Shown: positions 1,877 through 23,935, counted from the first letter of the stretch. The stretch: DNA of 64,000 nt from a virus (IMGVR_UViG_3300025132_000023:32168-96167); one strand, 5' to 3'. Program-made: numbers and translations. The notes: generated by a model not told the origin, from the letters alone.

Positions 1877-2632
1877 TTAACGCCTCTTTGGGTCAGGGTC
1901 TAAGTGAACCTTATTTTGAGTTTCTAAATATTTTACTGGAATTTTCTTCCCACTAGCAAGGAACTTTTGTAGTTGTCGCCATTGTTTAAAACTAGATTTT
2001 AGGAAAGTATATGGAGGAGAATTTTCTCCATCCCCTATTCCTTTAATTACCACATCAAATTCAAACCATCCTAGTTTTTCAAATATTTTATCAAATTCTC
2101 TTGTAACTCTTCTCTTAGAGTAATCTTGTAGTTCTTCCCACGTTTGCCATCTTCTATTAAATTCTTTACTAGGGTATGTCGATACTTCTCTTTTATAATA
2201 TCTTTGATAACCATATCTGTTTGGGTCAGAAGTATGTGGTTTGCGGTCATATCTTCTTACATCAAAGAATCTTTGTAAGAAGTGAAAGAACTGTGCGGGG
2301 CTGCTATATGGGTGGTCAGGTTTTGTAGGTTCATGGCCCCAAGCCTTATTATTTCTAACTCGACTTGCTACTTGCCATAATGTTGTATAAGCGTTATCAA
2401 TTTCTGGTTTTAATTCTGTCCACTTATTTTTATACATATCTAGTTCTCTACTAAAATCCTCATCTTTAGGGTCTATTCCTATATGTTCTTTTAATCGTCT
2501 GGTATTTTCATCTCGTTGTGCTGCAAAATCATCGCCGGGAAATGCCCCATATAAACCCGGATTTTCTTCCAAAAGGTCTTCCAACCATTCAGGAATTTTA
2601 TCGTCTTTTTTAAGCACTAATAACCAATTCAT
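1877..2632 (-). CDS. Hypothetical protein with N-terminal WxxVLK motif
   Basis: MNWLLVLKK start; overlaps portal stop (ATGA). Confidence 0.8.
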   Translation of the reverse strand: MNWLLVLKKDDKIPEWLEDLLEENPGLYGAFPGDDFAAQRDENTRRLKEHIGIDPKDEDFSRELDMYKNKWTELKPEIDNAYTTLWQVASRVRNNKAWGHEPTKPDHPYSSPAQFFHFLQRFFDVRRYDRKPHTSDPNRYGYQRYYKREVSTYPSKEFNRRWQTWEELQDYSKRRVTREFDKIFEKLGWFEFDVVIKGIGDGENSPPYTFLKSSFKQWRQLQKFLASGKKIPVKYLETQNKVHLDPDPKRR

Positions 2633-4266
2633 CTTGTTCGCCTTTCTGTCCTACTATCTACGTTTGTATTTCCTGCTTCTCTAGGTAAGCCTGTATTTCT
2701 TTTATCTGGGCCTGTTTCAGATGAAGGTTTATTTCTTGTTGCTGGTGGGTTTTCTTGTGGTGTAGGTGCATTACCTTGTTCCATCATTTGTCCCATTTGA
2801 CTTGCATCAATATTTGTTCCAGCATAGGGGTCACGCTCAATTTGTCCCTCTTGACCTTTTGGTTGTTGTCCTCCTTCTGGTGGAGGTTTATGATATGAAA
2901 ATCTTCCTTCATCGTCCATTTCAACTTCAAATCCTAAGTTCTTAATTGATGCAGCAATTTGAACTTCAAGTTCTCTTAGCCTTATCTTTGCTAATTCATC
3001 TTCCTCTTCTGAAGGAGGCAATCTTAATTCCCAATCTGTAATGCCAAATTGTTGTGTAATAAATGGCAATACATAGTCATTCCAAATTGTTTGTGCCATT
3101 TCAACTGCACGGTTTGTAACAAGAATTTGCATACCTTCATTGTTTAATCCACCACTAGCAGAATTGTCTGCCATGAAAATTTTAGATACCCCATAGAAAG
3201 CAGAAATCCTATCTCTTAGGTCTTCTTTAACAGCAATGTAATCCATCTCTTTTAGAGTGTTCATAAAATTAATCCACTCAATAGAACCCTTACCATTTTC
3301 TGCTTCTATTCCCATTACAGGGATAAAGTGCGGGTCTTGTTCCATCTTTTCTTTAACGCCTCTCCAGAAATTTTTCATTGAATCAATGTTTCTGGTTTGA
3401 ACTGCAAGCAATCCTCTTGGCATTCTGCTCTTAGTATAAGAAGAATTTACATAATTTTCCATAGCAATTAAAGTAGTAATGTGATTCCAAAGAGTAAGGA
3501 TTGGTGATAACCCATAAAGTCTGCTTGGATTATATTTGCTAAAGTGTAGAACTTCTCCTTTAATATAATACTGTTCTTCACCATGCGCTCTATTCACATA
3601 ATGTATAGGATATGTTGGGCCACCACATTCTTCACAAAGTTCTGTCGGGTCATCAGATTTAAATTCTCTATGTCTAAGACAAGTAAATCCTTCATTACCT
3701 TTTGCCCCTTTCTCATCAGAATAAATTGCCATAGTTACAGGGTCACCCCTATACATTTCTTTGATTCTATGCATCTTAATTTCACTATTCCCATCTAGGA
3801 AATATTCTTTTACAAGAATAACATATGCATCATCCATAATGTTAAGGTCATCTTCCATTTCCTTAAGAACATCTATGAACATCTGTTCTGAACCATTAAT
3901 ATATCCTCCTAAGAATTTCTTAGCATATTTTAATTGGTCTTTGTCCGGCTTCTTTAAATTTTGTGAACCACATTCTTGACAAACAGGAGTAGGAGATTTA
4001 TGTTTCTTTCCACAATCAGCACACTTAACTACAAACTTCTCATCCCAATGATAGCCCCTTCTAAATATTTCATTCTTTAATTGATTAGTGCAAGTTCTAA
4101 CTATTACACATTGTTGGGCAACGTGATAAATCACAGGCCCGGTTATCATATACGAGGCATCTTTTTCTTGAATACCCGGATTGAATACTTTTCTATCCGC
4201 AGGTTTAGGAGTTCTTCTCCTAAACACATTACGAAGAGAAAATCTTCTTTGTTCTTCTTCTACCAT
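2629..4266 (-). CDS. Portal protein with zinc-ribbon insertions
   Basis: 545 aa, near terL; portal-like motifs (YGLSPI, PRGLL, ISAFYGVS); CxxC pairs. Confidence 0.85.
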   Translation of the reverse strand: MVEEEQRRFSLRNVFRRRTPKPADRKVFNPGIQEKDASYMITGPVIYHVAQQCVIVRTCTNQLKNEIFRRGYHWDEKFVVKCADCGKKHKSPTPVCQECGSQNLKKPDKDQLKYAKKFLGGYINGSEQMFIDVLKEMEDDLNIMDDAYVILVKEYFLDGNSEIKMHRIKEMYRGDPVTMAIYSDEKGAKGNEGFTCLRHREFKSDDPTELCEECGGPTYPIHYVNRAHGEEQYYIKGEVLHFSKYNPSRLYGLSPILTLWNHITTLIAMENYVNSSYTKSRMPRGLLAVQTRNIDSMKNFWRGVKEKMEQDPHFIPVMGIEAENGKGSIEWINFMNTLKEMDYIAVKEDLRDRISAFYGVSKIFMADNSASGGLNNEGMQILVTNRAVEMAQTIWNDYVLPFITQQFGITDWELRLPPSEEEDELAKIRLRELEVQIAASIKNLGFEVEMDDEGRFSYHKPPPEGGQQPKGQEGQIERDPYAGTNIDASQMGQMMEQGNAPTPQENPPATRNKPSSETGPDKRNTGLPREAGNTNVDSRTERRTR

Positions 4267-4269
4267 CTA

Positions 4270-5580
4270 TTATACATCCATCTTTGAATTTTCTTCTAAC
4301 TTACTAATTGAATCAATATCAATGTCCCATTCATTCCAATTGAAATTAGTGTTGTCTTTGTGATTGTGATACTTCATTAACTTAAACAATTCATCTTTCC
4401 TTTGCTTATACCAATCTTCTTTCTTATTCTGCTTTTTAATTTTTATTAGTTCTAATAATACTTTTGCATTAGGCCCCTTCATTCTAAAGTGCGGCATACA
4501 TTTTGTTAATAACTTTTTAATATCTGAGCCGGAATAAAAGTTTAATCTATTTACAGGTCTAGTATCTTGAGGGGATTTTTGGTCTAAATGTAATCTTCCA
4601 ATGCTTCCTAATGATTTATACATTTCAGTCATAAATGCTTTTCCTCTTTCTCCGGTTGCAATTAGTCCTACTCTAGGGTTATGATTTCTATCCATTGTAA
4701 TATAGCCATCGGAGTCAATAAATGCTGCTGTATATGCCCATATATTCTTTTTGATTTCGTCATTAAATTTATAGTATGCTCCATTTACAGAAGTTATGTT
4801 TTCTTCCCTAGCAAGTTTTGCAATTACCGCAGAAGAAGTTTTATCGTATAAATTCTTATCTAACGAATCATGTATTTCTCTTGCAGAAATTCCGGGATTA
4901 TCACAAACCGATTTAAGTATCTCGGCCTTCACTACCGCCTTAGTGCTAGGGCTTATAGAGGTTTCCTTTAGAATTGCCTTAAATTCTCTTTTGGCTTTTG
5001 TTGCTTTCTTTAGATTCTCAGCATAACCCTTACCATAATATTTACCTTTCATTTCTAGGTTTGCTTCCCAATTCTTACAAAGAGCATCAATAACATTTCG
5101 CCTAGTGTCTTCATCACTAATCTTACTTAACTTTAATAGGTGGGTTTCATTACAAGTCATACTTTGTAAAGGAGCCTTATACTTCTTAACCCAATATATT
5201 GAATCAATGCACTTATGTAAATAATCTGTGTAGCCATCAATCACATTATCTATAGCCTTAGTAAATTCTATCTTCTTTTCACCCTTAAGAGTTCTTCGAT
5301 GCATTCTCATCTCTTTAATAACGTCAGGTATAGTATGTCCTTGAATTTTATATTGGTCTGGATAAACATCTAACATCTTTTTAGCATCTGTTAGGTTCAT
5401 ATTAAATTCTTGGGCATAATCCTTTGCTATCTCTTCATGGCTTCTAATAGGCTTATCTCCTAACCACGCCCTATTAAGTTGTTCAATTTCTTGTGTTAAT
5501 TTAGACTTTTCATTTAGAAGTTTGGCTTGTTCTTCCAAAGTTTTTGCCTCTTCTTTCTCTGCTTCTGATTCTAATACCAT
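4270..5580 (-). CDS. Helical N-terminal region + winged HTH + C-terminal LAGLIDADG endonuclease-like domain
   Basis: YTAAFIDSDGYI LAGLIDADG motif; NPGISAREIH HTH-like segment. Confidence 0.75.
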   Translation of the reverse strand: MVLESEAEKEEAKTLEEQAKLLNEKSKLTQEIEQLNRAWLGDKPIRSHEEIAKDYAQEFNMNLTDAKKMLDVYPDQYKIQGHTIPDVIKEMRMHRRTLKGEKKIEFTKAIDNVIDGYTDYLHKCIDSIYWVKKYKAPLQSMTCNETHLLKLSKISDEDTRRNVIDALCKNWEANLEMKGKYYGKGYAENLKKATKAKREFKAILKETSISPSTKAVVKAEILKSVCDNPGISAREIHDSLDKNLYDKTSSAVIAKLAREENITSVNGAYYKFNDEIKKNIWAYTAAFIDSDGYITMDRNHNPRVGLIATGERGKAFMTEMYKSLGSIGRLHLDQKSPQDTRPVNRLNFYSGSDIKKLLTKCMPHFRMKGPNAKVLLELIKIKKQNKKEDWYKQRKDELFKLMKYHNHKDNTNFNWNEWDIDIDSISKLEENSKMDV

Positions 5581-5594
5581 AATTCATACCCGAC

Positions 5595-7034
5595 CTAAAA
5601 ATTTAATCCTACCATGCTCGCGTTTTGCCCGTATAGCGGCTCCTCAGGGGCTTCAAAGATTCCCATGTCATCAAGCAGCATAAACGCTTCTGTTGGAGTC
5701 TGTGAGGCCGCATTTGCTAATGCTAGTCCCATCACTAAGTCGTCATGTGCGCCTACTCCCTCAAACTTCCCAGATTGGGTAATAGAAAACATAGATAACT
5801 CTTCTAATAAGGCTTGAGACATCTTTCTACTGTTATTATCACCATAAGGAAGGTGTAATTTATTGTTTTCAAAATTCATTTGAAGATTTAAGATGATTTC
5901 TTGTTTCTTTCTTCTAGTTGTGTCAAAATCTCGAACATTTAAGTCAGAAACTGCCCTTAGTTCTTGAGTAAAGGCTTTTGCAAACGTATTTGTTTCATAT
6001 AGTATAACCTCAGGCTCAAATACTTGACCAATTAGCCTTAATTTATCAATATTCTCTCTAAACTGAACATTCTTGGCCCTATCCACATGAACAATGCTTT
6101 TATTTTTCTCATCATCAACTTCTAAAACCATAATTACGTTATAATCGCCATCTGTAGAGATAGCAGGGTCAACACCAACATAATATTTGTATCCTTTATC
6201 CTTTCTGTGACCCAATTTAAGAATTAAGTCTTTATTTTTAGCATTTTCCAAGTGTTCTTGTCCGAAAAGTGCCGTGCCTGTTGAAACAGGAATACATAAA
6301 TACTCTCTTGTAAACTTTAATGAACCAATCTCTGCTTTTCTTTGCATTAGAGCATCATAGTCCCATCTTTCAGGCCATAGTGGTTCATTCATAGAATCTA
6401 AACACGGATACTTTCTAACTGTATAAGCAGCATTCTCTTCTAACTGTGAGAAAATATCAGTATATGTGAAAGGGGTTCCTATCATTCTTAAATTAGCAGT
6501 ATGATGCAGAGTTGGTATCATATCTCCGAAGAACCAATCAGTAACTCTTTGAATACCTGTTAAACTAAACTCTTTCAAAGGGTCGTCAATAATAATTTCT
6601 TGAGGGTGAAGACCACGAATCTGTGAACCTACTGACCTTTCAAGAATAGAGTTTCCATTTGTTAATGTAATGTTTCCAATAGCCCAACCTCTTGAAGGTC
6701 TAAACTTTTTTAGTTGTGGTAGATTAAAATACCTATCAATTTCTCTCATGTGAACTAGGGTCTGCTTTTGGTTAGAGGAAATGTAAAGCATTTGGAATGG
6801 GGGTTCTTTGAATACTAAATTCCACACTACCCAAGAATGCATAAAGACAGACTTTCCGTGGTCACGACTACAAACAATAACACTTCTATCTGTGTCTTGC
6901 ATAGTTTGAAGCCACTCTTGCATATATTCAGGATACATCATTCCTAGAACATTTTGAAAGAAATATGGAAATGAATCCTTAGACATTTCCATGTCCATTC
7001 TGTGGGCAAAATTTAATTCTTCTAATTCTACCAT
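5595..7034 (-). CDS. terL: Terminase large subunit
   Basis: Walker A SRDHGKS, Walker B IIIDD, RNase H-like nuclease motifs VGVDPA and HDDLV. Confidence 0.95.
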   Translation of the reverse strand: MVELEELNFAHRMDMEMSKDSFPYFFQNVLGMMYPEYMQEWLQTMQDTDRSVIVCSRDHGKSVFMHSWVVWNLVFKEPPFQMLYISSNQKQTLVHMREIDRYFNLPQLKKFRPSRGWAIGNITLTNGNSILERSVGSQIRGLHPQEIIIDDPLKEFSLTGIQRVTDWFFGDMIPTLHHTANLRMIGTPFTYTDIFSQLEENAAYTVRKYPCLDSMNEPLWPERWDYDALMQRKAEIGSLKFTREYLCIPVSTGTALFGQEHLENAKNKDLILKLGHRKDKGYKYYVGVDPAISTDGDYNVIMVLEVDDEKNKSIVHVDRAKNVQFRENIDKLRLIGQVFEPEVILYETNTFAKAFTQELRAVSDLNVRDFDTTRRKKQEIILNLQMNFENNKLHLPYGDNNSRKMSQALLEELSMFSITQSGKFEGVGAHDDLVMGLALANAASQTPTEAFMLLDDMGIFEAPEEPLYGQNASMVGLNF

Positions 7035-7615
7035 TATCTTTCACCTTCTGCTTCATTCCATTCTTGTGCCATTGCTGTTGGAATATAAATTACCAAATCA
7101 TTATTTCTTTCTTCTGCTCTTGCTACATGGAAGTCTACAACTTTCTTTGGAATGTGTTCATAATATTTTGTTATATCTGTAGGATTAACATCAAAGAATT
7201 TTCTTCCAAAAGAATCTGCCCAATTCTTTCCTCCCAAAGACTTGTTATTTAATAAACCTATAGCGGCTTTGTGGCCCATCTTAGACATTTTCATTTTCTG
7301 TAGTTTTGCGCCAATATTTGTAAATCCTTTCTTTCCACCGTTTGCATAGTCTGGATGAACTCTTGCTCCTGCTAAGGCCCACCATTTACCGTGGTCTTCA
7401 AACCCAGAATAACCTATGATTCTATTATTATCCCAAGCAGTAAAATAGTCACCATCAAAAGTAAATGGGTTTAAACCTACAGGATTAGTTCTTCTTGCGG
7501 GTCTTGGATTATCTGGATTTGATTCAGTCCAAACTTCAACTATTTCATCTTCTGAAAATAATCTTGCTGGAAATGTAATTCCTTTGTATGCTTTTACAAT
7601 CTCAAACCAATCCAA
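7034..7615 (-). CDS. GNAT-family acetyltransferase-like protein
   Basis: RIIGYSG...LAGARVHPDY..GG acetyl-CoA-binding pattern; TTG start after GGTGG; WFEIVK motif. Confidence 0.6.
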   Translation of the reverse strand: MDWFEIVKAYKGITFPARLFSEDEIVEVWTESNPDNPRPARRTNPVGLNPFTFDGDYFTAWDNNRIIGYSGFEDHGKWWALAGARVHPDYANGGKKGFTNIGAKLQKMKMSKMGHKAAIGLLNNKSLGGKNWADSFGRKFFDVNPTDITKYYEHIPKKVVDFHVARAEERNNDLVIYIPTAMAQEWNEAEGER

Positions 7616-7675
7616 ATTCCCACCACCTAAATCTATTTAATTTAATTTTGCGTAAAGGCAAATTCTTTTTTCCCA

Positions 7676-7960
7676 TTAATATCCCATTTCAAATTTACTT
7701 GGACTTGTTAGTTCTCTTGCTTTTTGACAACAGAATCTAATTTTTTGAGTGGATTGTAGGAACCAAAAAGTATCTTTTTCAAGCCTAAATTGTTCTTCTA
7801 AATAATTACACAACTCTCTCCTAGTCATGGCTTCAATATCAGAATCAATTTTTAACTTAAGAATTGGCCCGGTTTCTGGTGGTAGCCTTGCATCTAACAC
7901 AACATATATGTGACCCATCCAATCAATGAGTTTACTAATTATTCTGTGTCTAAGTTTCAT
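7676..7960 (-). CDS. Hypothetical protein
   Basis: ORF in operon. Confidence 0.7.
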   Translation of the reverse strand: MKLRHRIISKLIDWMGHIYVVLDARLPPETGPILKLKIDSDIEAMTRRELCNYLEEQFRLEKDTFWFLQSTQKIRFCCQKARELTSPSKFEMGY

Positions 7961-8115
7961 TTCTTATCAACTACCTTATGTTCAAATAAATAATCTGAAG
8001 CATCATCAACAGATGACCAATCGTGTTCATCCAAATCATATTTATCTGCGACTTCCTCTAAATCATCTATTGCCTCATCAACAGGCTTTTTCTTTACGAT
8101 GTTAAACCAGTTCAT
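7957..8115 (-). CDS. 52-aa acidic protein not in the ORF track (MNWFNIVKKKPVDEAIDD...)
   Basis: Translated by hand; ATGA overlaps at both ends; carries the W-motif. Confidence 0.75.
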   Translation of the reverse strand: MNWFNIVKKKPVDEAIDDLEEVADKYDLDEHDWSSVDDASDYLFEHKVVDKK

Positions 8116-10679
8116 CGGAACACCGCCTTTACATGATAAACGACATCTTCATTAACACCAAATTTCTTTGCGATAGTGTTCATATTATCAAACTCACTAA
8201 CAATACCAACAATGTCAGTTGCAGTAATTTCTACGTTATATCGCTTCTTCACAAAGTCTATTGTATCGTTAACATTGTCAAAATCGCTGGTGTCTCCAAA
8301 GCCTAGATAAGTAGGCTTGTTTAACATCTTTCTAATTTCATCATGGGCAACTAATATAGAACGCTCTGGTATAGATAGTTTAATTTTATCTCCTCTTTCA
8401 GTATGAAGAGACATGAACTTTTCAACTTGTGCTTTCTTTGATAAATCCTTTTTAAACAATTTAGACTTAGAGGCAATAAATATTATTAAATATTTATACA
8501 TTGGTGTAGGCTTACCTGCTTTCTCATATTCTCTTGCAAGTCTTTCTACACTTTGTCCTTCAATCTTTAAATCATCTAAGGAAACATTATCATTTTCTTT
8601 TGCAATCCTTTCCAATATGTGTCCAAAATACTGATATTCTAGGGACATATTTTCAGTAAATTCTTCAAGAATAGTTAGAACGTTTTGAACAGAGGTTTCA
8701 AGATTTTGCTTAGAAGGAGAAGTAGTAGTCAATGCTGTTCTGTATTGGTTTATCTGAAGCAAATCATTATTATCAATCAACCCAATTCCATATTCTAAGA
8801 ATATAGTAAATAGATGAGAAATTAATCTGTCAGGTGCGCCTCGCGCCATAAATCGCGCTAACTCGCCCTTTCGTAAAAATTTAGGAACGTCCTTAAAAGG
8901 TTGCATTTCTCCTTGTGAAGGTTCTACATAATAGTCTTGTATTGCTTCTAATACATTTTGCATAGACTCTTCAAACTCTCCTAAATCTTCTCTAAGTGAA
9001 CCTAAATGTCCTAATCTAAATCTTGAGAAAACGTTATATAATTCTCTTTGTGACGCATCTTCTTTCTCTTCTCTTCCAGCAATTCCTCCTGATGGCATAT
9101 CTACTGCATCCCAAATCTCCGGCATAGAAGTTCTATCTAATGGGTCTTCTAAGAGATTACCTATTGCTTCTAATAAGTCTAAATGAAATTGTTCTAACTC
9201 ATCAAAAGAAGGCAAATCCTGTTCTCCTAAATAGTCTGCATTAAATTCAAATGCAGAGCCTCTATGTCTTAGAAACTCATTAACTTCTTGTGTATAAGGA
9301 ATATAATAAAATTCTCTTTTTGCATCAGAAATCATTTCTTTTCTATTTTTATGTTCATCTAATAGTTCTTGTAAGTCCTCTGCTATACCAGCATCCATTT
9401 CGTTTTCTTCTTTAATTTCTTGTTCTAGTACCTCCAAGAATTTCTCCCATGACTTCTTATCAAAGGGGTCTTCTACAATTCCTTTCTGAGCAGCAATTGC
9501 GTAAAGAGGGTCAACATCTGTTATTCTAGTTTTACGACCTGTTTGCTTTTTAAAGTTCTCAGCCGTTTCTTCAACTGTGCCACCACCTGTGCCAAACTCG
9601 CTGGTTGCGCCAGTATTTCCTGTAACATCTTCTTCGTTTACACCATAAAGGTCTATCATTTCTTCTTCTTCATCTATAGCGAAATCATCATCTTCTTCTT
9701 CACCAGAACGGTCATCACCTGCCTCATCAAACAACTCTTGTATTTTTGTCATTATTGCATTGTGAACATTATCTAAAGTATCTAATTCGTCATCACTTGC
9801 AACAGGATAATGCACAGTTCTACTTTTAATAACATAATTCATACTATCCATTTTTTCATATAGTTTGTGTAATACCTCTAATTCCTTGTCTAAGGTATGG
9901 AAGAAAGTCTCTGATTCTTTTCTATTAGTAATTGTTGTCTTCTCACCAACCACTTCGCCCTCTTCATTTAGAAGTTCTTCGACTTCTTTTTCAAGTCCTT
10001 CCCAATTAAGTAACAATTCTTTAATTGCATTTTGCAAGACTTCATATTCATCATACACACCAGACCAGAAGTCATAGAATTTCTCTCTTGATTTAATATA
10101 TTTAGGGTCAATCACTCCTATTAATTCTGAGTCATCAAATCTTTCAATTTTTAGTTTTCTTTTCCTGTCTGTTGTTTCAAGAGCATCTGATAAAGAAGAA
10201 AGTCCTAATGCATAGTGTGACATAAACTCTTTACCTTTTAGGGTATCCAACATATCATCTAAAAATTTCCTAGTATCTTTGTCTTTGTTTACTAAAGTAA
10301 TATCATCAATGTTAAGAGCAGATTTGAGTTGGTTGGGTCTTAGTTTTCTATTGCGATATTTGAAATTAATTAATATTTCCTTTAATGATGTTTTACTTAA
10401 CTTACCTGTATCGGTTCCTTTAGTAAGAAACTCAATATAGTCTTCAATATATTTATCAGAAAATCCTCTATCTTGTAGTTCTTCTGTAACATCCTTGATA
10501 CTTGCATCTCTATCTTGAGATTGAGTAACTTCTATAACATCACTTCTAGGAACATGGTCTTCTTGGAACTCTAATGTTTCTGCTTCATCCATCATATCAG
10601 CATATACCATCATGTCTTTAATATCATACTTATCCATGTAGGCGTGTCTTGTCAAACCAATATAATCTTTAATCTCCAT
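8112..10679 (-). CDS. Large acidic hypothetical protein (855 aa), possible internal virion protein; C-terminal HTH-like segment
   Basis: Long ORF; TIAKKFGVNEDVVY at the C-terminus; virion role inferred from position. Confidence 0.75.
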   Translation of the reverse strand: MEIKDYIGLTRHAYMDKYDIKDMMVYADMMDEAETLEFQEDHVPRSDVIEVTQSQDRDASIKDVTEELQDRGFSDKYIEDYIEFLTKGTDTGKLSKTSLKEILINFKYRNRKLRPNQLKSALNIDDITLVNKDKDTRKFLDDMLDTLKGKEFMSHYALGLSSLSDALETTDRKRKLKIERFDDSELIGVIDPKYIKSREKFYDFWSGVYDEYEVLQNAIKELLLNWEGLEKEVEELLNEEGEVVGEKTTITNRKESETFFHTLDKELEVLHKLYEKMDSMNYVIKSRTVHYPVASDDELDTLDNVHNAIMTKIQELFDEAGDDRSGEEEDDDFAIDEEEEMIDLYGVNEEDVTGNTGATSEFGTGGGTVEETAENFKKQTGRKTRITDVDPLYAIAAQKGIVEDPFDKKSWEKFLEVLEQEIKEENEMDAGIAEDLQELLDEHKNRKEMISDAKREFYYIPYTQEVNEFLRHRGSAFEFNADYLGEQDLPSFDELEQFHLDLLEAIGNLLEDPLDRTSMPEIWDAVDMPSGGIAGREEKEDASQRELYNVFSRFRLGHLGSLREDLGEFEESMQNVLEAIQDYYVEPSQGEMQPFKDVPKFLRKGELARFMARGAPDRLISHLFTIFLEYGIGLIDNNDLLQINQYRTALTTTSPSKQNLETSVQNVLTILEEFTENMSLEYQYFGHILERIAKENDNVSLDDLKIEGQSVERLAREYEKAGKPTPMYKYLIIFIASKSKLFKKDLSKKAQVEKFMSLHTERGDKIKLSIPERSILVAHDEIRKMLNKPTYLGFGDTSDFDNVNDTIDFVKKRYNVEITATDIVGIVSEFDNMNTIAKKFGVNEDVVYHVKAVFR

Positions 10680-12768: not shown

Positions 12769-12772
12769 TCAA

Positions 12773-13630: not shown

Positions 13631-13638
13631 TTTATCAC

Positions 13639-14040: not shown

Positions 14041-14209
14041 ATGAAAACCTCTCATTTAATTTCTTCTTTCTCTCATCGCAACCGCAGCCTTTGCCTCTTA
14101 CTTCATTGATTGCGTAAACTGCTTTCTTAATACCTGTAGCAGTTGTGATTCTTTCTATGGTGTCACCCAAGCCTTTGTCTTCTTTAAGTAATGCTTTCTT
14201 CCAACTCAT
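14030..14209 (-). CDS. 59-aa protein not in the ORF track (MSWKKALLKEDKGLGDTIERITTATGIKK...GCGCDERKKKLN)
   Basis: Translated by hand; fills the gap in the operon. Confidence 0.75.
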   Translation of the reverse strand: MSWKKALLKEDKGLGDTIERITTATGIKKAVYAINEVRGKGCGCDERKKKLNERFSYGE

Positions 14210-14211
14210 AA

Positions 14212-14553
14212 TTACATATCTCCATATTGGAATAGGGTAGGAGAACTATCTGGTTTTACTGTTCTAGTTTGTACTAATGGTCTTTTTGCATCCATCTCTT
14301 GTTGCATATTAGAATGCAATAACTCTCTTACTTCAACAAACCATTCGTCTATCTGTTTAGCGATTTCTCCTAACCTCTTATCTTCAATTTGTTTAGCAGC
14401 CTGTTGAATGTTTTTACCACCTATTGATTGTCCTTTTACCATCTTTATTTGTCTTAAGATGTTATCCACCTTATTTAAATTAAAACGAATCCTTTTGGTG
14501 TCACCTGTGGCGTGAACCATTAAGTCCTGTTTAAGTATATCTTCCCATTTCAT
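14212..14553 (-). CDS. Hypothetical protein with W-motif
   Basis: MKWEDILKQ. Confidence 0.8.
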   Translation of the reverse strand: MKWEDILKQDLMVHATGDTKRIRFNLNKVDNILRQIKMVKGQSIGGKNIQQAAKQIEDKRLGEIAKQIDEWFVEVRELLHSNMQQEMDAKRPLVQTRTVKPDSSPTLFQYGDM

Positions 14554-15722
14554 ACTTCATTCCTCCTTGCGTCTAATGTTTCTTGTGTTACATCTGTTAA
14601 GTTATCCAAAGACTCTTTATGATTTTCTAATGCTTGAATCTCTTTTTGTTTATCTGCTACTGCTCCCGGCGATAATTGAATCTCTTTACTTCTTTGCCCC
14701 AACCTTTCGCTTATATCCTGAGTCCTCAATTTTTCGTCTTCTCTTTTTGTCTTGGCATTTTGAAGTTCTTGAATTAATTTATTTGTTGTGGGGTCTGATT
14801 TTGGGTCTTTCTTTAATCTTTCAAGCAAGGCATCATTTCTTTCATTTTCTTGTTGTTTTGTTTGTTCACGCCTAACTAATCCTGCTCTTGGTGTCCATTG
14901 TGGGGTATCTGTGCCAACAGGTGGTTTATTTCCACCATATGTTGTTTTAAGGTTCTTTCTCCAATTATCTCTTTTAGCCCTACTAAGTGGATTTAATATG
15001 TGAGACATTGTGCTTTGGCCTGTTTTACCTGAACCCGATAACATTGATAGTCTTTCACCCATGTTAGTTTTACCATCTGGGTTACGAAGTGCTTCTTCTC
15101 TTTCTGCATCGCTTAAGTGCGTGGTTTCTCCTATAACTTCCTCTCTTGTCTTACCACGAAGGTCGGATATTTTGTCTGCTGCTCCTGTTACTGCTTGTCC
15201 AAACTTTTTACCTGCTGCTCTCAATGGTGCAGTAAATGGGCTTTCAGTAGCATAACTTACTGCTGCATCACCTGTGCCCCTTAATGCACTTTCTGCAAGG
15301 TCTTTTGTTTTATCTTTAGCGCGAGATGCAGTATCTTTAATCTTTTTATTTCTTTCTGTTCTTTTGGCTTCTGCTTCCTTAACTTTTTGAGAATGTTCTT
15401 TATCTGCTTGTTCTTTTGCCTTTCTTCTTGCAGCGTCTTTCTTTTTCTTTGCTTCCATTTTTTCATTGTGTCTTTTCATTCTATCAGATACAACGGGAAA
15501 TTCTTCTAGTTGAGTAGTTTCTGGTGCGGTTGCTCTTTCTTGTCTTCTAGCAACTTTAGATTGAATCTCTTTTTTCTCTTTTCTTGAAACGCCTGTTTGA
15601 GTAACGGGTCTATCTTTTCTTGAACTCCTTAAACTTTCTTCTGCTAATCCTGCTCTTGCAGGGCTATCTTTTGGCGGGGTCGCCACCTTAGCGACTTCAA
15701 ACCAAGCAGCAGTTGCATTCAT
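14550..15722 (-). CDS. Basic, low-complexity/coiled-coil protein
   Basis: 390-aa K/R/E-rich ORF; WFEVAK near the start. Confidence 0.8.
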   Translation of the reverse strand: MNATAAWFEVAKVATPPKDSPARAGLAEESLRSSRKDRPVTQTGVSRKEKKEIQSKVARRQERATAPETTQLEEFPVVSDRMKRHNEKMEAKKKKDAARRKAKEQADKEHSQKVKEAEAKRTERNKKIKDTASRAKDKTKDLAESALRGTGDAAVSYATESPFTAPLRAAGKKFGQAVTGAADKISDLRGKTREEVIGETTHLSDAEREEALRNPDGKTNMGERLSMLSGSGKTGQSTMSHILNPLSRAKRDNWRKNLKTTYGGNKPPVGTDTPQWTPRAGLVRREQTKQQENERNDALLERLKKDPKSDPTTNKLIQELQNAKTKREDEKLRTQDISERLGQRSKEIQLSPGAVADKQKEIQALENHKESLDNLTDVTQETLDARRNEV

Positions 15723-15730
15723 TAAATCAC

Positions 15731-16072
15731 CTAATAATATGTTTCTGCTTGTCTTCTACCTTTGCGCGGCTGTGAACAAGCGGGGGCAGTTTTACTTCCT
15801 TTTTCTTCTACACAAATAGACCAAGATTGTTGATTCCATTCTTGATATTCTTTAATATTTTGTCCACGCCTTCCTATGATTAACCCTGCTGCGCCGGGTT
15901 TTGTTATTATTCTTATCTTTTTCATCATTCTATCTACAGTTATGCTAATTAGGTGTTTTGCCATCTTCTTTCTCTCAAAGAAACTCCACAAATTACTCCT
16001 AATCCTTTTATCTCCTGAAGGCCTATTTGACCTTGGACTTCTTGTTTTTAATAATTCAAACCATTCTTCCAT
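15731..16072 (-). CDS. KH-domain (GxxG) RNA-binding protein
   Basis: IRIITKPGAAGLIIGRRGQNIKE matches the KH signature. Confidence 0.7.
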   Translation of the reverse strand: MEEWFELLKTRSPRSNRPSGDKRIRSNLWSFFERKKMAKHLISITVDRMMKKIRIITKPGAAGLIIGRRGQNIKEYQEWNQQSWSICVEEKGSKTAPACSQPRKGRRQAETYY

Positions 16073-16076
16073 TAAA

Positions 16077-16373
16077 TCACCTCTCCTCTTGTCTTAACTT
16101 ATGTTGCCATGAGGAATCAAAAAATTGAGCATCTGTATCGCTCTTAGGGTCACTAACAAAACTTGGCTTTTTCATTTTAGGTAATTTATCTTGAACCATT
16201 TTAAGTCTATACAATACTACAAATCTATTACACTCATCACAAACTCTGCCATCACATAAAGGCTTACCATTGTTCCCAAATCCCTCATAGGGTTTACCAC
16301 ATAAAGCACAAATCTTTTCATCTTCCATATCTTCTGGTTGTCTAACCGTCTTAAGTGCTTTATCCCAACTCAT
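16077..16373 (-). CDS. Small zinc-finger protein with W-motif
   Basis: CALCG...CDEC; MSWDKALK. Confidence 0.75.
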   Translation of the reverse strand: MSWDKALKTVRQPEDMEDEKICALCGKPYEGFGNNGKPLCDGRVCDECNRFVVLYRLKMVQDKLPKMKKPSFVSDPKSDTDAQFFDSSWQHKLRQEER

Positions 16374-16374
16374 A

Positions 16375-17145
16375 TTATTCTTCCTCTAAAATGTCTCTTA
16401 ATATAACTTCTGTATCTAATAGAAATTTACTGTCTTTTGGCCCAACTAATGTGCTGGCTGTAATAAAAGCAAGACCTCTAAGAACAGTATCTATATGATA
16501 TTTCATTTTATCTGTTACTTTGGCATCAGCAGGTAATTTCTTTCTAGGAACCCTTGCCCATTCTTTACCGTCTTTCCTTTTATTCGCCTCTTGTTCTTTT
16601 ATATATTCTGGTGTTCCCCACCTATGCTCATCAGGATGATAAAAGTATGCCATTTCATCTTCTTTGGCTAATATCTCTTCCATTGATTTCATTACTGCAC
16701 CACCACGAAGTTTCTTCTGTTTAATGCGCCTAGTATCTCCTTCTTCATTTTTAACATAATCACAAATTGTATTATCATTTGTTAACTTAACCCACATTTC
16801 TGGAAAACTATCCATTTGAGTTCCATGATTTCTTAACCATACTTCTTTACAACTATCGCAAACATTCACATTTTTAGTTGCGTGCCTCCAAGAAGCAGGA
16901 TGAACCTCCATGCCTTCTCTTTCTAATGCCTCTCTAGTAACTTTAGGCGCACATTCTCTACATACTCTTGGAGTTGGTTGTCCTTCTAATCCTAAGTTTT
17001 TCCACTCCCTAGCAATTTGTTGTCTTCTTTTGTATGGGATGTTATAGATATATTCACCATTAACTTTAGGAACTTCTGCACCTACTCCTCTATATTGTCG
17101 CTTGCATTTTACGCAAGTGGCTTTTAATATGTTTTCCCAACTCAT
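16375..17145 (-). CDS. Zinc-binding hypothetical protein with W-motif
   Basis: Probable start MSWENILKA at 17145 with GGAG RBS; several CxxC. Confidence 0.75.
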   Translation of the reverse strand: MSWENILKATCVKCKRQYRGVGAEVPKVNGEYIYNIPYKRRQQIAREWKNLGLEGQPTPRVCRECAPKVTREALEREGMEVHPASWRHATKNVNVCDSCKEVWLRNHGTQMDSFPEMWVKLTNDNTICDYVKNEEGDTRRIKQKKLRGGAVMKSMEEILAKEDEMAYFYHPDEHRWGTPEYIKEQEANKRKDGKEWARVPRKKLPADAKVTDKMKYHIDTVLRGLAFITASTLVGPKDSKFLLDTEVILRDILEEE

Positions 17146-17798
17146 TGCATCTTCTCCTCCATCTTTTGTTTTACATCTAACCAAACTTGTGGATGATTCT
17201 GTGCTAATACTTCTTGAACAATCTGCATTTGCGCTACTATGATTGTATCCTGTCTCTTGTGAACTAACTTGCCCTTGAACTCCATTAGATACCGTAGGCT
17301 TTCCCTAATTTCTTTTGCCAACTTGGTCAAACTATCAATATATTTTGGATGCAATTCGTCCTCTTCAAAGAGAACATCAATCTTTTGCTCCAAACGGGTT
17401 ATGTTCTTCGATAGACTGTCTATCTCGTCTACCTCTTTCACGGCTATAATACTTGCCGCCGCCTTCTGAACCAATGGCTGAAGATGTTTCCTCATGTGCC
17501 TCTTTACCTGTTCTTCTGAACATTTCAAAAGCATAGACACGCCTTTGGGTGTAACAGCACCACTATGTAATTGCTGTTCTAATTCACCCCTTAACTCATG
17601 TATGCAGAAACTACACCGAGGATTAGAAGCATCTACATAATCCCCCATATGATTTCTATGATGCCTTGCAGTTGTTCCGCTAGGCCAATCCATTCTGTTA
17701 TCTAAATCATCGGCAGTAATTGCCATTGTCTCTAATTGTGCTTCTAAGTCATCACGTTCTTCGTGATTACATAATTTACATCTTCTTCGCTTTACCAT
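17142..17798 (-). CDS. Duplicated CxxC-H/HTH protein with coiled-coil tail; candidate terminase small subunit or regulator
   Basis: Two repeats CxxCxH...HxxxH followed by a helical oligomerisation-like region; function inferred. Confidence 0.45.
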   Translation of the reverse strand: MVKRRRCKLCNHEERDDLEAQLETMAITADDLDNRMDWPSGTTARHHRNHMGDYVDASNPRCSFCIHELRGELEQQLHSGAVTPKGVSMLLKCSEEQVKRHMRKHLQPLVQKAAASIIAVKEVDEIDSLSKNITRLEQKIDVLFEEDELHPKYIDSLTKLAKEIRESLRYLMEFKGKLVHKRQDTIIVAQMQIVQEVLAQNHPQVWLDVKQKMEEKMQ

Positions 17799-18979
17799 GC
17801 TAATACACTCTCCCAACTTTTCTTTACCTTAGTGTTCTTTTTCTTAGGTGCAGACTTTTTCTTTGGAACTTCCTTTTTCTCTACCAGACCCGGCATAAAT
17901 ACTGTTTCTTTTCCGGGGGTTCTCTTACAATGCCCAGATAGAATCGCAAGATTTTTCATCTGCCTTCTTGTAATATTAAGTGAAATACCCTTTACCTCAC
18001 CAATGAATTTATCATAGTCTGCTATTCTCTTAACAGTCTTACTGTCCTTTAAACCTATGTCAATAAAAGTAAATGCTTTTAATCTGCCATGTGCATGAGA
18101 ATCCCTAAACATACCTGTTGTTTTATTCATTCCCCAACCGGGATTATTTTTATCTCCAATCATTTCAGCAACATAGTCTTTAACTGCGTCTATTTGCATT
18201 AGTTCTGCCGCAGTAGTTCCTTTACCTGTATCTACAATCTTAAGTTTAAGATGTTCAAAACTAACATCTTCTTCTAGTGCTTTGACTACTTCACTTAAAA
18301 CATGAAGCAATCCGTTTTGGATTAACACCTTCTTGCGAATAAGCATCTTTTTAACTTCATACAAATCTCCACTACCTGCAAAGAACGCTTGCCACATTGG
18401 AGGCTCTGCTTGGTTTTCAGCAGTATTATACCAATCTGAAGAAACTGCTTTTATAGGCTCCTCTTTACCGCCAAATATTTTAGCCTTTAGATTTCTATAT
18501 TTAACATAGTCATCTGTTCTGTAATGTCCATAGACTTCAACAACATCTTCTTCCTCATCATAGTCTGCATTACTTCTATTGACTTCAGCCCAATTAGGAA
18601 TAGTAAATATAATGTTTCTAGGGTCATCTTTTGTGTCTCGCATATTTTTTAATTTTACATATACTTTAGTGACTTCCTTTTTATCTTGTTCTGTTATAGC
18701 CTCATTCATCTCTAACATATCATCTAGTAATTTAATTATGTTATGTCCACCGTCAGGTATTTCGTTTTCCTTATTCCTAGATACTTCCAACTCACCATGA
18801 CTTGCAACTAAATCGAGTAATGTTTTATCAGAAGTTATACCTAAAGCATCTCCTTTCGCAGACTCACATTCAGTCTTCCAACCTTCATATGCATCTTTAA
18901 ACTTAGAAGAATCAAATGTTTGGGTTCCTTGAGAGCCATCAATATTAACTACTGTTGAGGACTTCTTCTCTTTAACCAT
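17792..18979 (-). CDS. Hypothetical protein
   Basis: Long ORF; GGAGG RBS before ATG at 18979. Confidence 0.8.
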   Translation of the reverse strand: MVKEKKSSTVVNIDGSQGTQTFDSSKFKDAYEGWKTECESAKGDALGITSDKTLLDLVASHGELEVSRNKENEIPDGGHNIIKLLDDMLEMNEAITEQDKKEVTKVYVKLKNMRDTKDDPRNIIFTIPNWAEVNRSNADYDEEEDVVEVYGHYRTDDYVKYRNLKAKIFGGKEEPIKAVSSDWYNTAENQAEPPMWQAFFAGSGDLYEVKKMLIRKKVLIQNGLLHVLSEVVKALEEDVSFEHLKLKIVDTGKGTTAAELMQIDAVKDYVAEMIGDKNNPGWGMNKTTGMFRDSHAHGRLKAFTFIDIGLKDSKTVKRIADYDKFIGEVKGISLNITRRQMKNLAILSGHCKRTPGKETVFMPGLVEKKEVPKKKSAPKKKNTKVKKSWESVLAW

Positions 18980-18980
18980 A

Positions 18981-21900
18981 TTATTCCTCCTTACGATTAT
19001 CCTCATGTGTTGACATTAAACCTGCCGTCCCTGCCACAGCAGCACCCGCCAACGGTATTACCTTTTCCATATCGCATTTACAATCTCCGCCGCAACTACA
19101 ATCTTTCTTTTTTCCACCATAGGATATATTGAATAAAGCATCAGTTCCTCCACCTGATGATAATATTGCTCCACCTTCTTTAATTATATTCCACCACTTC
19201 ATAATCTGTTCACTTCCGTTATTAAATCTTCATAGTATTCGCTATCTGGATTGTGTAGTATCCAAACTTCTTTTTCCTTTTCTTTAATTAGAACTCCTAG
19301 CGGGTCGGTTCTTTGAAACCCGAATGTATTTACAAAGTCTGTAGGAATATCGAAGTTTTTAGTAAGAGTCTGCGAGCGAATTTTATAGTCGCTTTTGAAT
19401 AAATTAAACCACATATTAATTATACTCCTTTATTGCTGTTTTAATTTTAGAATATAATGGGTGCTTTGTATAAAAATTAATTTTATATTTATCTCCTTCT
19501 ACTTCTGGGGGAATGGGTTTAAAAACGTTTTCAGGATTATCACTCTTTATTTCAATAATCATCACATTAGTAGGTTCTTGTTTTACTTCTTCTTTAAAGC
19601 CCATAGCCTCATGGTATGTTTTTATATGTTCATCATTAAAAAATTCAAATCCATCTTTTCCTACAAAAGGTATTTTTGGCGCACCCATCCATTCTAAGTT
19701 TCTATTCATTCTTTCAACTGCATCATCCGTCATGTCACCTCTAACCCATTGATTCATAATTCCTTCTCCCGCAGATTTACCGTGCTTTCCATGTGTCTCT
19801 AGGAAAAAAGGAATGACTTTTGGTTTGAAAAAATCTGCCTTTATTTCTTTAGGAGAAACATCATCTTTAGTTCGTTGTAACATTTTGTCTGATAAAGTGT
19901 CAAATTTAATCCAATTAAAAAGAACCCCTCCTGCCTTCTTATCTTCCTTACTTACTGCTACAATAAATTTAGTTAAATCCCCCCAACGATTCGGCTTCCC
20001 ATGTCCTCCACTAAGAAACTTATTAATTTGTTTTTTTGTGAACTCCTGTTTTTCAATTAACTCAAACCAATTCATTCAATCCCATCCCCTTTTTGCTGGC
20101 TTTCTTCTGGGTATCTTTTTTCTTGGACTTACAACAGCATCTTTCCAATCTCTATGTTCTTCCCTATACCTTTCAGAAGGTTTCATCTCTCCTTCAGTTA
20201 TATGTCCTACTCCTACCTGATGTGGTTTAAGGTCGTTAGTGTCCTTTAGTGGAGAATAAAGGTCTACACAATCTTGCCATTGGTCTATAATGTCATCCAT
20301 ACTTAGCCTGCCACTTTCATCTTTTTGTGTCATCGCATATAAATCAACACCGAAAAGTTTTGCACTCTTTTCTTCAAGATTTTCGCTTTCAAACAAATTA
20401 CTAATGGTTACACAGTTCATGTTTCTAATAGTGTTGGTAATTTTCTTTATGTTAGCAGCAGTATTGTCAGCCATAGTAGACTCTAATACATACTCTGTTA
20501 ACATTTCTTTAACCTGCTCACAACAAAACTCATCATTTTCTGCTACCATAACATCTTCTTCCATTGTTACAGGATACACTTGGCTTATCTCGTCTTCAGC
20601 CATTCCTCCTTCTTTGGTGTATGGCTGGTCTTCATCGTCTTCTGGTGCTGAAGGCTGACCTCCTCTATTTGGGCCACCACCGCCACCGCCTCCTCCGCGC
20701 CTATTATCTAGTTCGGTGTCCCTTTCAACCTTAGTCTTCCATTTACCATCAGGCCCCTTAGTTCTGACCTTTATTATATCTTCCCACTTCATCTTAAATC
20801 CTCCATTCCGGTACAGTTCTCATAAATAAACATTGTCTCATTTACAATTTTTGATAGTGAATCTAAATAAATTCTTCTGTAATTGTTTGCTTTTGGTTCT
20901 GGATTTGCGTGATTAAGTGCTTCTTGCAACTTTGAAAAGTATTTAACAAAATCTCCATCTCTTGCTTGCACATAATCAAAAACTTCTTTCTCTCTTCTAA
21001 ATTCAGTATATTTTTGAAACAACGGGCCTACCTGTTTATTGAAATAATCCATTGCTGGTTTAACACATCTATCTGATTTAAGTATTGTTTCCCAGTTCAT
21101 GTCATTTCCTCTTTTAGTATTTGTTGTATTCCTGTTCCTCTCTTAATATTTGTCTTATTGTTTTCTTAAACCTGTCAGACTTTACTCCACCAACTTCTAA
21201 ATATGCGCTCATTAATCCCCGAATTAAATCCTTTGTTTTTGGTGAATCCTTCTCTAAATAAAACTTATAATAAAAGCGTTCTTTGTTATTAAACAATTCT
21301 GTTACTAATTTTTCTTCTACTTGTGCTGTAAGATTTCTAAACTGTCTTGCCATTATATCACCCGATAAAATGTCTTTTTTCCGTTCCTCCCAACACCGCG
21401 TTCCTGCTTAGTTGTAATATCCATACTCTCTAATCTCTTTCTAAGGAAAGAAGTTAAGTTTTCATCACTATCTTTTAGACCCGGATTCTGTTCCCTTAAT
21501 GATTTAACAATGTCATCAATTGATGACCACCCTTCTGCAATGCTGAAATAACTAGTAATTTGTTTTTCTAAAGAATCGTAAAATTCATTGCTTCTCTTTC
21601 CATGTTTCTTCCTAAGATAATCTAAGTGTTTCATATCGTTAGGCTGTGCATACTTTTCAGCAAGCATTTCAAACTCCTTCATTTCTGAAGACTTAACTAA
21701 TTCAAACCAAGTCATGTTTTCTGCATCCTTTCTGCACACTCTCGACAAAACGTCAAATCAATTTGCTTACCCTTAGCACTCTTACCATAGTCAATAGTGA
21801 ATCTATTACGCGCACCCAACATTCTACCACACATAGCACATTTATTCTTAGGCATAGTTTTAGTGGCCTTTGGTTTAATCGCTTCCATTGCTCCTCCTCC

Positions 21901-23935
21901 ACCACCCTCTAACTTTACTTCTCCTTCTTTAGCCTTTCTTGAACCTAATCTTGTTTGCATTTCAGGTGTAAAGTCTTTCTGCCTTTGAAGAACTTCTTTA
22001 TGTCTGTCTGCAATTGGAGTATTTGCTCTTACTGCGTCCATCCAATTTCCTTCTTCATCTTGCATTATTCCTCTACCCATTACTCGCGTTTTTTTGTTTG
22101 GGTCAACTTCTTCTCGCTTCTCACCAGAGAATACATTAGGAGGTTGAATCTTCTTTTTCTTCCTTGGACGATTCTTATCAATATTATACCAGTTCATTTG
22201 CACCACCCATTTCTGCACATTTATCCCATGCATCTACTATTTGTTGCATTCCGGGCATTCCCATGTCAGCAAACATTTCTAGTTCTTGTCTTAAATTACT
22301 ACAATTATAGTTCTTCCATTCAGAACTTTGTAATACTCCTCTTCCAATTTCTCCATATTCTCTTAATTGGTTTTCTGCTGCTTCTCTAGCGTGTTCACAA
22401 CAAAGGTCATTGTTCTCATGTGGATTATTCTTAGGTGGCCCATCTAAAATCATTCGTGCTGCTTGAGCATTATCAAGTTTTAATATTTGAATCCAAGTCA
22501 CTTCTCATCACCTTTCTTTTTTTGTTCCTCATCCCACTTTCTCTTATCTGACCTATCTAATCGCTTGCCCTTTTTACTTGGGTCTTTACCAATATACACT
22601 TGATTAGTATGTCCATCCATTCCGCTAAATCTATGGTCATCACACCATTGTGCGCCACAAGTAACACACGCCCACTCTGCTAAATTATGACATCCTCTTC
22701 CCATAGGTTGCCAAGAAGAACAAGCGTCTTTTGGGAAACTAGAAATATCAAAATCTTTCATGGTATCTTTAGCATCTTTCTTAGAAGTAAAACCTTTAAA
22801 CTTCTTTTTCTTTGGCCCATCGCCTTCTTTCTTAGGTATATTAAATTTAACTATATTTTGCCATGACATAATATTACCTCCAATCTGCTTCTTTATCAAA
22901 CGCACTTTTTTGTGATGCTGTAAGTGTTACTCCAGTATTAATAACATAGCCAATCTTGTATATTATTTTATCCCCTTTTCTAATGTTTAGAGTATTAACA
23001 TACATATGATGTTTATCATTACGAGAAGTTCTCCAAGCATAATATCTAACAATATGATACTTTTCATCAGTTGAAGATTTTGCACCTACGAACCTTTGCC
23101 TGCTTGTGCCTGTCTTTTTCTTCTTTCTTTCATAGTCGTCTTTAATATCTCTAAGAATTTCTGCTTCCCTCTCTCTAACTAGACCTATTAATTTGTTATA
23201 ATCATTATCTGCCCATCTAAATCCTTCTTTGAAATCAAAAGGAGGTACTCCGCTCTGCCATAAAGAACGTCTTTTCCACCTGCTTTCTACAAACTTCGTA
23301 AAATCAGGGTCAGCAGAACTTGTTTCTGATACTACGTCTTCTGCGGGCTTTAATGACCTACCCATTTCATCATCAAAAGGAGAAGGTTTAGCAGAGTCTG
23401 CTTTCCAAGGATTACCGTTTTTATCCAATGGGCCTAAAACTTCCTTTTTACCCATAGGAGTTACCTTAATCTTCCTTAATGCCATACAAGCAATCTCCTC
23501 TGGTATACTATCTGTATAAGTTCTATTAGTCATATACTTATTAAAGTTTGGAATATTGCTAATATTATGTTCTCTTCGCATCTCATGAAGCACTTCAGAT
23601 TCTAAACTCTTTGTTTTAGTGTTTACCTTATCAAGCAAGTTCTTTAATTCGTCCCTACAAGAATCGTCCGTGTAAACATCTAATTTGTCATCAATCATAG
23701 TTTCGTCCATAACATCTCGTTGAACTTCATCACTATCATCTAAAACATCATATTCGTGAAGTCTAGTTTTACCCCTGCCCCTGTTAACATCACTTTGATA
23801 CGCAGAAGCCCTTCTATCTTCCCAACCTATACCGTGTTCTCTAGCATAGGCTTCTGTAGCGTCTTCGCGCTCCTTTCTTTGACGCGCTTCTTCAGGCGTG
23901 AGTTTACGAGCCTTTAGGATGTCTCCCCAACTCAT
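18981..23935 (-). other. Run of about 11 small to medium hypothetical genes (18981-19202, 19199-19414, 19416-20075, 20076-20792, 20789-21100, 21114-21353, 21353-21715, 21712-22197, 22184-22501, 22498-22869, 22874-23935), nearly all starting with the W-motif
   Basis: Tightly packed or overlapping minus-strand ORFs with RBSs; starts adjusted to the M-x-W motif. Confidence 0.8.

Follow-up and report, generated by a model that had tools for sequence, protein, structure and literature searches.

Analysis of the 64,000-nucleotide stretch IMGVR_UViG_3300025132_000023:32168-96167 (hereafter, the window), which is taken from a virus record of 96,167 bp (bases 32168-96167) that CheckV rates complete, identified an eight-residue peptide tag with the consensus M-x-W-x-x-[IVL]-[LIV]-K that is carried by approximately one-fifth of the genes of this 96-kb genome. 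The tag is a real, protein-level and modular element, confined to chain ends and independent of which end it occupies. The interpretation that we favor, with a rough probability of 0.55, is that of a capsid-targeting tag trimmed by the prohead protease, which would be similar in its working, although not homologous, to the capsid targeting sequence (CTS) of phage T4. The S78 (HK97-type) prohead protease of this virus (PF04586, E = 2e-10) has its best GenBank phage matches among haloarchaeal tailed viruses (31–32% identity), a pattern previously reported in magroviruses, the viruses of Marine Group II archaea (PMC5434244), and by this affinity we classify the virus as an ocean archaeal virus, a magrovirus.

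A sequence-only reading of the window had listed 22 tagged N-termini, all of which (22/22) are present on the minus strand between positions 1877 and 23935, in proteins that indeed range from 52 to 699 amino acids (aa). The tags sit 1–6 codons after the start codon, with Shine-Dalgarno-like GGAGG/GGTGA sequences upstream, and with corrected starts the 22 genes open with M-x-W-x-x-[ILV]-[ILV]-K or with a form differing from it by one residue. Two more N-terminally tagged genes are found to the left of the window, for a total of 24 in the whole genome (Table 1). A scan of all 130 open reading frames (ORFs) with a position-weight matrix built from related contigs (cut-off 9 bits) returned no internal match of at least 9 bits; the sole non-N-terminal match is at the extreme C-terminus of a 404-aa protein (17792-19006). 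As had been stated earlier, the tag is absent from the large terminase (terL) and from the portal protein, which share the minus arm with the prohead protease, the capsid protein and tail genes, as well as from the replication arm, where none of the 49 plus-arm ORFs is tagged (Fisher p = 5e-8); the latter arm encodes a split family-B DNA polymerase, a clamp-loader ATPase, an ATP-dependent ligase, a ribonucleotide reductase and a tRNA-Leu. The tagged genes are co-directional, overlap (typically by 4 nt) or abut, and form an array located directly upstream of terL and running into it without a break, a few further tagged genes being located between portal and protease. By way of correction, they make up an accessory array that shares the direction of the head genes, and are not head structural genes. 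The tagged proteins are also relatively basic, with a median isoelectric point (pI) of 8.35 vs. 5.8–6.0 for the other proteins.

Codon usage within the tag bears directly on the level at which it is conserved. Synonymous and conservative codon variation is observed at every tag position but the Trp, with the two hydrophobic positions being served by 8 and 11 different codons and with the Lys encoded 13 times by AAA and 8 times by AAG, and the information content is highest at second codon positions. The proposed conservation at the amino-acid level was borne out by this variation, which, combined with the second-position peak, speaks against conservation at the nucleotide level.

Additional evidence comes from tags at the opposite end of the chain. 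Homologues of the 404-aa protein (37–97% identity) end with K-K-S-W-x-S-V-L-A-W, more distant ones (40–43% identity) end with K-M-D-W-x-x-I-L-K followed by two residues, and in a second protein family from related contigs the tag is likewise C-terminal. These C-terminal copies rule out explanations tied to translation starts or N-terminal processing, and their K-M-D-W form indicates that the Met ahead of [SD]-W belongs to the motif. The C-terminal occurrence also argues for a binding role of the tag, as trimming of two residues is an unlikely purpose and the copy in this genome, in which the Lys is lost, retains W-x-x-V-L.

The carriers are unrelated beyond the tag, as had been proposed. An all-against-all BLAST comparison of the tag-removed sequences yielded one related pair only (bodies of the 13639-14040 and 22498-22869 genes, E = 3e-5), which suggests a local duplication within the array. 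The carrier folds include a GNAT fold, a KH domain and a three-helix bundle, most carriers being orphans; few of them are named by Pfam or PHROGs, namely the KH protein (15731-16072; PF07650, E = 2.4e-5, above the curated cut-off) and, by a weak GNAT match, the 193-aa protein (7034-7615). The AlphaFold2 model of the latter (predicted local distance difference test, pLDDT, 79.6) matches GNAT/GCN5 acetyltransferases (Foldseek E = 8e-6, probability 1.0), with residues 1–8, i.e., the tag, modeled outside the GNAT fold at pLDDT < 50. All seven of its database homologues are tagged, and one of them has an extra 100-aa domain separating the N-terminal tag from its GNAT body; the tag therefore keeps to the chain end and not to a particular body. 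A similar arrangement is predicted by AlphaFold2 for a conserved 111-aa tagged protein of the head module, in which the tag forms a low-confidence helix (residues 2–7) followed by a 10-residue linker and a three-helix body. The largest carrier, of 699 aa, gave no lead in the ESM Atlas and no Pfam or PHROG family.

Extension of this analysis to 80 related contigs with portals 71–99% identical, scanned over 10 kb on each side of the portal gene, yielded 312 distinct tagged ORFs with the consensus M-S-W-[FQE]-[DSEN]-[IV]-[LIV]-K, the Trp being residue 3 in 83% of them. The bodies of these proteins fall into 119 BLAST clusters, including 56 singletons, and the only universal carrier is the 111-aa head-module protein (77 loci). 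Most of the seemingly untagged members of these clusters carry slightly degenerate tags. Carrier bodies turn over fast between relatives. A general view of the cargo as enzymes was considered and dropped as unsupported, since Pfam names only 8 of the 119 cluster representatives.

The putative link between the tag and the head comes from look-alike sequences on proteins other than the cargo, which were found on two proteins only, both of them involved in head morphogenesis. The prohead protease carries a C-terminal fusion part of approximately 200 aa, acidic and coiled, which makes it a protease-scaffold fusion, and ends with E-M-S-W-G-E-I-H-N-F located nine residues from its C-terminus. The form [ML]-S-W-x-[DE]-[IL]-H-N-h (h, hydrophobic residue) of this tail is kept in all 64 of the 64 close homologues and also in representatives of 50%-identity clusters, down to 30% identity. 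An 82-aa helical scaffold-like protein of the head module ends with K-M-D-W-A-D-I-N-A-M-V, the K-M-D-W-x-D-I-[HN] tail being conserved in 61 loci; a shuffled proteome yields 0.6 matches of this kind. Given the conservation of both tails, the first six residues of the tag (M-S-W-x-D-I) equal the tails of the protease-scaffold and of the 82-aa protein. The combination of an S78 prohead protease with a conserved short C-terminal tail is as in the encapsidation tail system of the HK97 gp4 type.

With respect to the tag Lys, the capsid protein contains a conserved G-N-[AS]-L-L-K/[SA]-[AS]-G site at residue 28 (the slash marks the bond in question), and the capsid proteins of two other magrovirus lineages contain [DE]-L-L-K/A-D-[SA]-P at the same place. 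This L-L-K/[SA] site appears to parallel the maturation cut of HK97 gp5, which falls at Lys103/Ser104 in the HK97 record given a 102-residue scaffold domain (PMC12749128). Two L-L-M-K sites are also present in the 82-aa protein. A search of the capsid protein sequence against PDB returned no match. Separately, an internal segment of the capsid protein, H-L-W-L-S-V-M-K-P-T (residues 419–424), fits W-x-x-h-h-K and is invariant in approximately 45 homologues; it could be a chance occurrence, or the tag could imitate this capsid segment.

Taken as a portable end-of-chain address, the tag would consist of a very short amphipathic helix joined by a flexible linker to its protein, and would dock soluble proteins onto the inner side of the assembling procapsid through the same kind of contact as that predicted for the C-terminal tails in which the protease-scaffold and the 82-aa protein carry a Trp. 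The prohead protease, of the HK97 type (S78), would then cut after the tag Lys, releasing the cargo inside the head, from which it would leave together with the DNA at the next infection. Binding to capsid or scaffold, cleavage after the Lys, presence in the virion and injection of the tagged proteins are all steps that we infer. The T4-like scheme of the sequence-only reading therefore stands in part: its modular, protein-level tag is observed, and capsid loading and a post-Lys cut are, we infer, the best explanation of it. In a broader and more tentative version, which we consider less likely than not, the tag may be a general sorting code, effective at either chain end and both necessary and sufficient for loading soluble proteins into an HK97-type head, copied from the capsid-binding tail of the scaffold and protease proteins and used for the injection of well over 100 rapidly changing effector families; candidates for the latter are acetyltransferases, RNA-binding and zinc-ribbon proteins as well as many orphans. 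The natural gain of the tag by more than 100 families and its use at either chain end hint indirectly that it could suffice to load a foreign protein.

Several observations weigh against the idea of a capsid address. Two further magrovirus lineages were reached via distant protease representatives. In the lineage of this virus, M-S-W-x-[DE]-I-L-K tags accompany an M-S-W-x-[DE]-I-H-N-h protease tail; in the second lineage, M-S-x-F-[DE]-x-A-W-x-V-V-K tags accompany a D-L-D-G-W-R-A-A-E-x-L-A tail; and the third lineage combines tags of the second type (F-[DE]-x-A-W-x-h-L-K) with a protease tail as in this virus (M-S-W-[DE]-E-V-H-x-L-A). Thus, the tag type does not track the protease-tail type across the three lineages, which weakens literal mimicry of one pocket and indicates that the literal identity of tag and tail seen in this virus is not general. 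It is this non-covariation that keeps our confidence moderate. The residue following the tag Lys also varies (in relatives, K 20%, A 17%, E 12%), in contrast to the [SA] found after the Lys of the capsid-protein site, and the 25 cargo species, one of them of 699 aa, would be a lot to share a head with 96 kb of DNA. A conserved F-x-I-L-K at the protease N-terminus, initially a candidate cleavage site, may instead be part of the S78 fold and was dropped, since HK97 gp4 also opens with M-P-E-I-V-K. To our knowledge, no magrovirus has been cultured, and the halovirus HVTV-1, representing the nearest cultured relatives, has neither a shared tag nor a W-tail, so its published virion data are not transferable.

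Other features of the same comparison are shared by the lineages. Within each lineage the two scaffold-type tails are alike, the small scaffold-like protein of the third lineage ending with M-[ST]-W-x-[ED]-I-H, and in the tags and tails of all lineages the Trp has small or aliphatic neighbors on one face of the helix. Among the other distant protease representatives, P0180 led to a small unrelated virus without tags, and for P0137, which has a Tyr-variant tail, no locus was found. With regard to the N-terminus of the protease, M-P-E-I-V-K of HK97 gp4 (L239 3348-4025) stands directly ahead of E-G-Y-A-S-V, and F-x-I-L-K of magrovirus proteases stands before G-G-Y-A-S.

Of the competing explanations, the strongest, although still unlikely, treats the tag as a short linear motif for another common partner, such as portal or terminase, a viral hub for assembly or for a replication factory, or a host protein to which many take-over proteins need access. 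Motifs that bind a hub are typically terminal, at one or the other end of the chain, lie in disordered surroundings and are rapidly gained by unrelated proteins, and the independence of tag type from protease tail across lineages fits as well; nevertheless, look-alike sequences occur elsewhere only on two head-morphogenesis proteins, no replication-arm protein is tagged, and the tagged genes form one array into terL. A chaperonin-substrate tag is also unlikely, as a Cpn60/thermosome gene is absent from this genome, rated complete by CheckV. Less probable again is a mere propeptide, removable by the protease, that would delay activity without serving as an address. It would account for the hydrophobic-hydrophobic-Lys ending, which is like that of the capsid-protein site and the HK97 K/S cut, but not for the motif placed two residues from the C-terminus in the 404-aa family, nor for the local copy that has lost the Lys and kept W-x-x-V-L. 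Moreover, HK97-type prohead proteases work inside the shell, so their substrates must already be there.

The remaining possibilities carry very little weight. A Sec, Tat or lipoprotein signal for secretion or membrane targeting, suggested by the N-terminal location common to unrelated proteins, would be expected to have a hydrophobic core of 7–15 residues following a basic N-region, which the tag does not have: its hydrophobic residues number two or three and are interspersed with acidic residues, it occurs at C-termini as well, and no membrane segment is found in any tagged protein (maximum 19-residue Kyte-Doolittle mean of 1.22). Even less can be said for a nucleic-acid signal, i.e., a translation-initiation enhancer, a small-RNA target or a recombination site, for which the location at gene starts, with the Trp so often the third residue, might speak; this explanation is already contradicted by the codon data and by the same peptide appearing at the 3' ends of genes, and it appears in the tails of the two scaffold-type proteins as well. 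Equally hard to sustain is a set of diverged paralogues with the tag as the sole surviving conserved block: one pair of bodies is weakly related, but the lengths span 52–699 aa, no other pair is similar, the folds differ (GNAT, KH, helical bundle), and a whole domain has been inserted behind the tag of one GNAT homologue.

Comparison of the putative capsid address with known systems places T4 closest in its working. The T4 CTS on IPI-III and Alt (Mullaney and Black, 1996, as summarized in PMC9958956 and PMC7411985) is, like the magrovirus tag, an N-terminal peptide of approximately 10 residues on unrelated, non-essential and partly basic carriers, encoded in both cases by genes clustered in a variable region, with an enzyme (Alt) among the T4 cargo and a GNAT-fold protein here. 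It ends at a prohead-protease site, and a cut is likewise predicted at the h-h-K end of the magrovirus tag. However, the T4 protease is gp21, cutting after Glu, whereas the magrovirus protease is of the Pfam S78 HK97 type with W-x-x-h-h-K as the motif; the carriers number approximately 25 in one genome, and the cargo families exceed 100, vs. four or five in T4; and the magrovirus tag is also found C-terminally, in a virus of an archaeal host. Given the S78 protease and the different motif, the magrovirus system would be an analogue of the T4 CTS system and not a member of it.

The tails of the head proteins have their counterpart in the C-terminus of the HK97 protease gp4, which is an encapsidation signal (Duda, Oh and Hendrix, 2013, as cited in PMC12749128); a targeting role has also been proposed for the protease C-terminus of SPN3US (PMC7411985). 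The role of the gp4 tail was established experimentally, whereas that of the magrovirus protease tail, unrelated in sequence, is predicted, and, unlike in HK97, many other proteins have come to carry a tail-like peptide (M-S-W-x-D-I). The cargo-loading peptides of encapsulins, short terminal peptides that bind the inner face of an HK97-fold shell (PMC7355545), are similarly portable and located at the ends of diverse cargo. Nevertheless, encapsulins are devoid of portal, terminase, protease and DNA, and their peptides are mostly C-terminal, have another consensus and are not removed after loading; the terL, portal, protease and tail genes present here set this virus apart from them. Giant phages (SPN3US, phiKZ) have propeptide-bearing ejection or inner-body proteins (PMC7411985), and phage P1 has Dar proteins (PMC12810830). 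These numerous head-internal proteins share a short motif at which the prohead protease processes them, and after packaging they are ejected together with the DNA, but the giant-phage propeptides are 70–130 residues long and mutually dissimilar except at the cut site, no uniform eight-residue tag being known there. In MuF polymorphic toxins of temperate phages, a constant N-terminal module is thought to bring variable C-terminal effectors into the head (PMC5576092); that module is a portal-binding domain of several hundred residues as opposed to a tag of eight, and no MuF (SPP1 gp7-like) domain was matched by Pfam or PHROGs in any tagged protein. Overall, with its S78 protease, another motif, eight residues at either end, approximately 25 carriers and more than 100 families, the magrovirus system is a member of none of the compared families. 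The magrovirus literature that we searched contains no mention of the tag motif, and nothing was found for capsid targeting in archaeal viruses.

Among archaeal viruses, magroviruses rank with the most abundant in the surface ocean. If the proposed role is correct, approximately one-fifth of their genes would gain a first functional label, as virion-delivered proteins, and the hypervariable "dark matter" of these genomes would turn into a list of candidate take-over or anti-defense effectors against Marine Group II archaea. Archaeal HK97-type viruses would join T4-type phages and encapsulins as users of capsid cargo-addressing, with a tag far shorter and far more widely used than the known examples, which could also be a minimal loading tag for protein containers.

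Table 1. Location of tagged genes and of other genes mentioned in the text. Positions are counted within the window unless marked as genome or L002 coordinates.
Feature	Position	Strand	Length (aa)	Tag or motif	Remarks
Tagged gene	22874-23935	-	353	MSWGDILK	no Pfam or PHROG family
Tagged gene	22498-22869	-	123	MSWQNIVK	weak paralogue of 13639-14040 gene
Tagged gene	22184-22501	-	105	(M)TWIQILK	GTG start
Tagged gene	21712-22197	-	161	MNWYNIDK	basic; two CxxC motifs
Tagged gene	21353-21715	-	120	MTWFELVK	
Tagged gene	20789-21100	-	103	MNWETILK	
Tagged gene	20076-20792	-	238	MKWEDIIK	
Tagged gene	19416-20075	-	219	MNWFELIEK	extra residue ahead of Lys
Tagged gene	19199-19414	-	71	MWFNLFK	
Tagged gene	18981-19202	-	73	MKWWNIIK	
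C-terminally tagged protein	17792-19006	-	404	...KKSWESVLAW (C-terminal)	probable true start 18979
Untagged protein within array	17142-17816	-	224		CxxC pairs; weak HTH_20 match
Tagged gene	16375-17145	-	256	MSWENILK	three CxxC motifs
Tagged gene	16077-16373	-	98	MSWDKALK	zinc-ribbon-like
Tagged gene	15731-16072	-	113	MEEWFELLK	KH domain (RNA-binding), PF07650; pI 10.4
Tagged gene	14550-15722	-	390	MNATAAWFEVAK	Lys/Arg/Glu-rich, low-complexity; pI 9.8
Tagged gene	14212-14553	-	113	MKWEDILK	
Tagged gene	14030-14209	-	59	MSWKKALLK	
Tagged gene	13639-14040	-	133	MANEWTNILK	
Tagged gene	12773-13630	-	285	MDKREIWEKVLK	
Tagged gene	10669-12768	-	699	(M)AWENLLK	GTG start; largest cargo candidate; no family
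Tagged gene	7957-8115	-	52	MNWFNIVK	
Tagged gene	7034-7615	-	193	(M)DWFEIVK	TTG start; GNAT-fold acetyltransferase candidate
Large terminase (terL)	5595-7034	-		untagged	phrog_38, E = 7e-48
ORF between terL and portal	4270-5580	-	436		weak HNH-endonuclease PHROG match, E = 1e-4
Portal protein	2629-4266	-		untagged	phrog_18178, E = 4e-70
Tagged gene	1877-2632	-	251	MNWLLVLK	directly after portal
Head-module protein (N-terminal part)	2-1654	-	687	MGEILLK	Trp-less tag variant
N-tagged gene	genome 31428-31763			MWENVILK	left of window
N-tagged gene	genome 23412-23627			MWDIILK	left of window
Ligase-domain protein	L002:12141-14657 (genome 28441-30957)	-	838		PF01068, E = 1e-29; left of window
Prohead protease (S78)	L002:10863-12098		411		left of window
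Major capsid protein	L002:9427-10851	-	474		left of window
Canonical three-domain ligase	45573-47102				replication arm
DNA polymerase, first ORF	54535-56196	+			exonuclease and beginning of polymerase domain
DNA polymerase, second ORF	56699-57610	+			remaining polymerase domain

Some additional features of the gene layout are worth recording. The Trp-less variant at the start of the 687-aa head-module protein has counterparts in its homologues, which open with MSFLDALLK or MVELLLK. Within the tagged array, the untagged 224-aa protein could be a regulator or a small terminase. HVTV-1, too, carries an HNH gene in the interval from terL to portal. The family-B DNA polymerase is split into two ORFs separated by approximately 500 nt. 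The 838-aa protein with an ATP-dependent DNA ligase domain lies within the head module, flanked by portal and protease, and is present besides the canonical ligase of the replication arm; it is possibly a large virion-internal enzyme, and at the equivalent place HVTV-1 has a 1313-aa protein.

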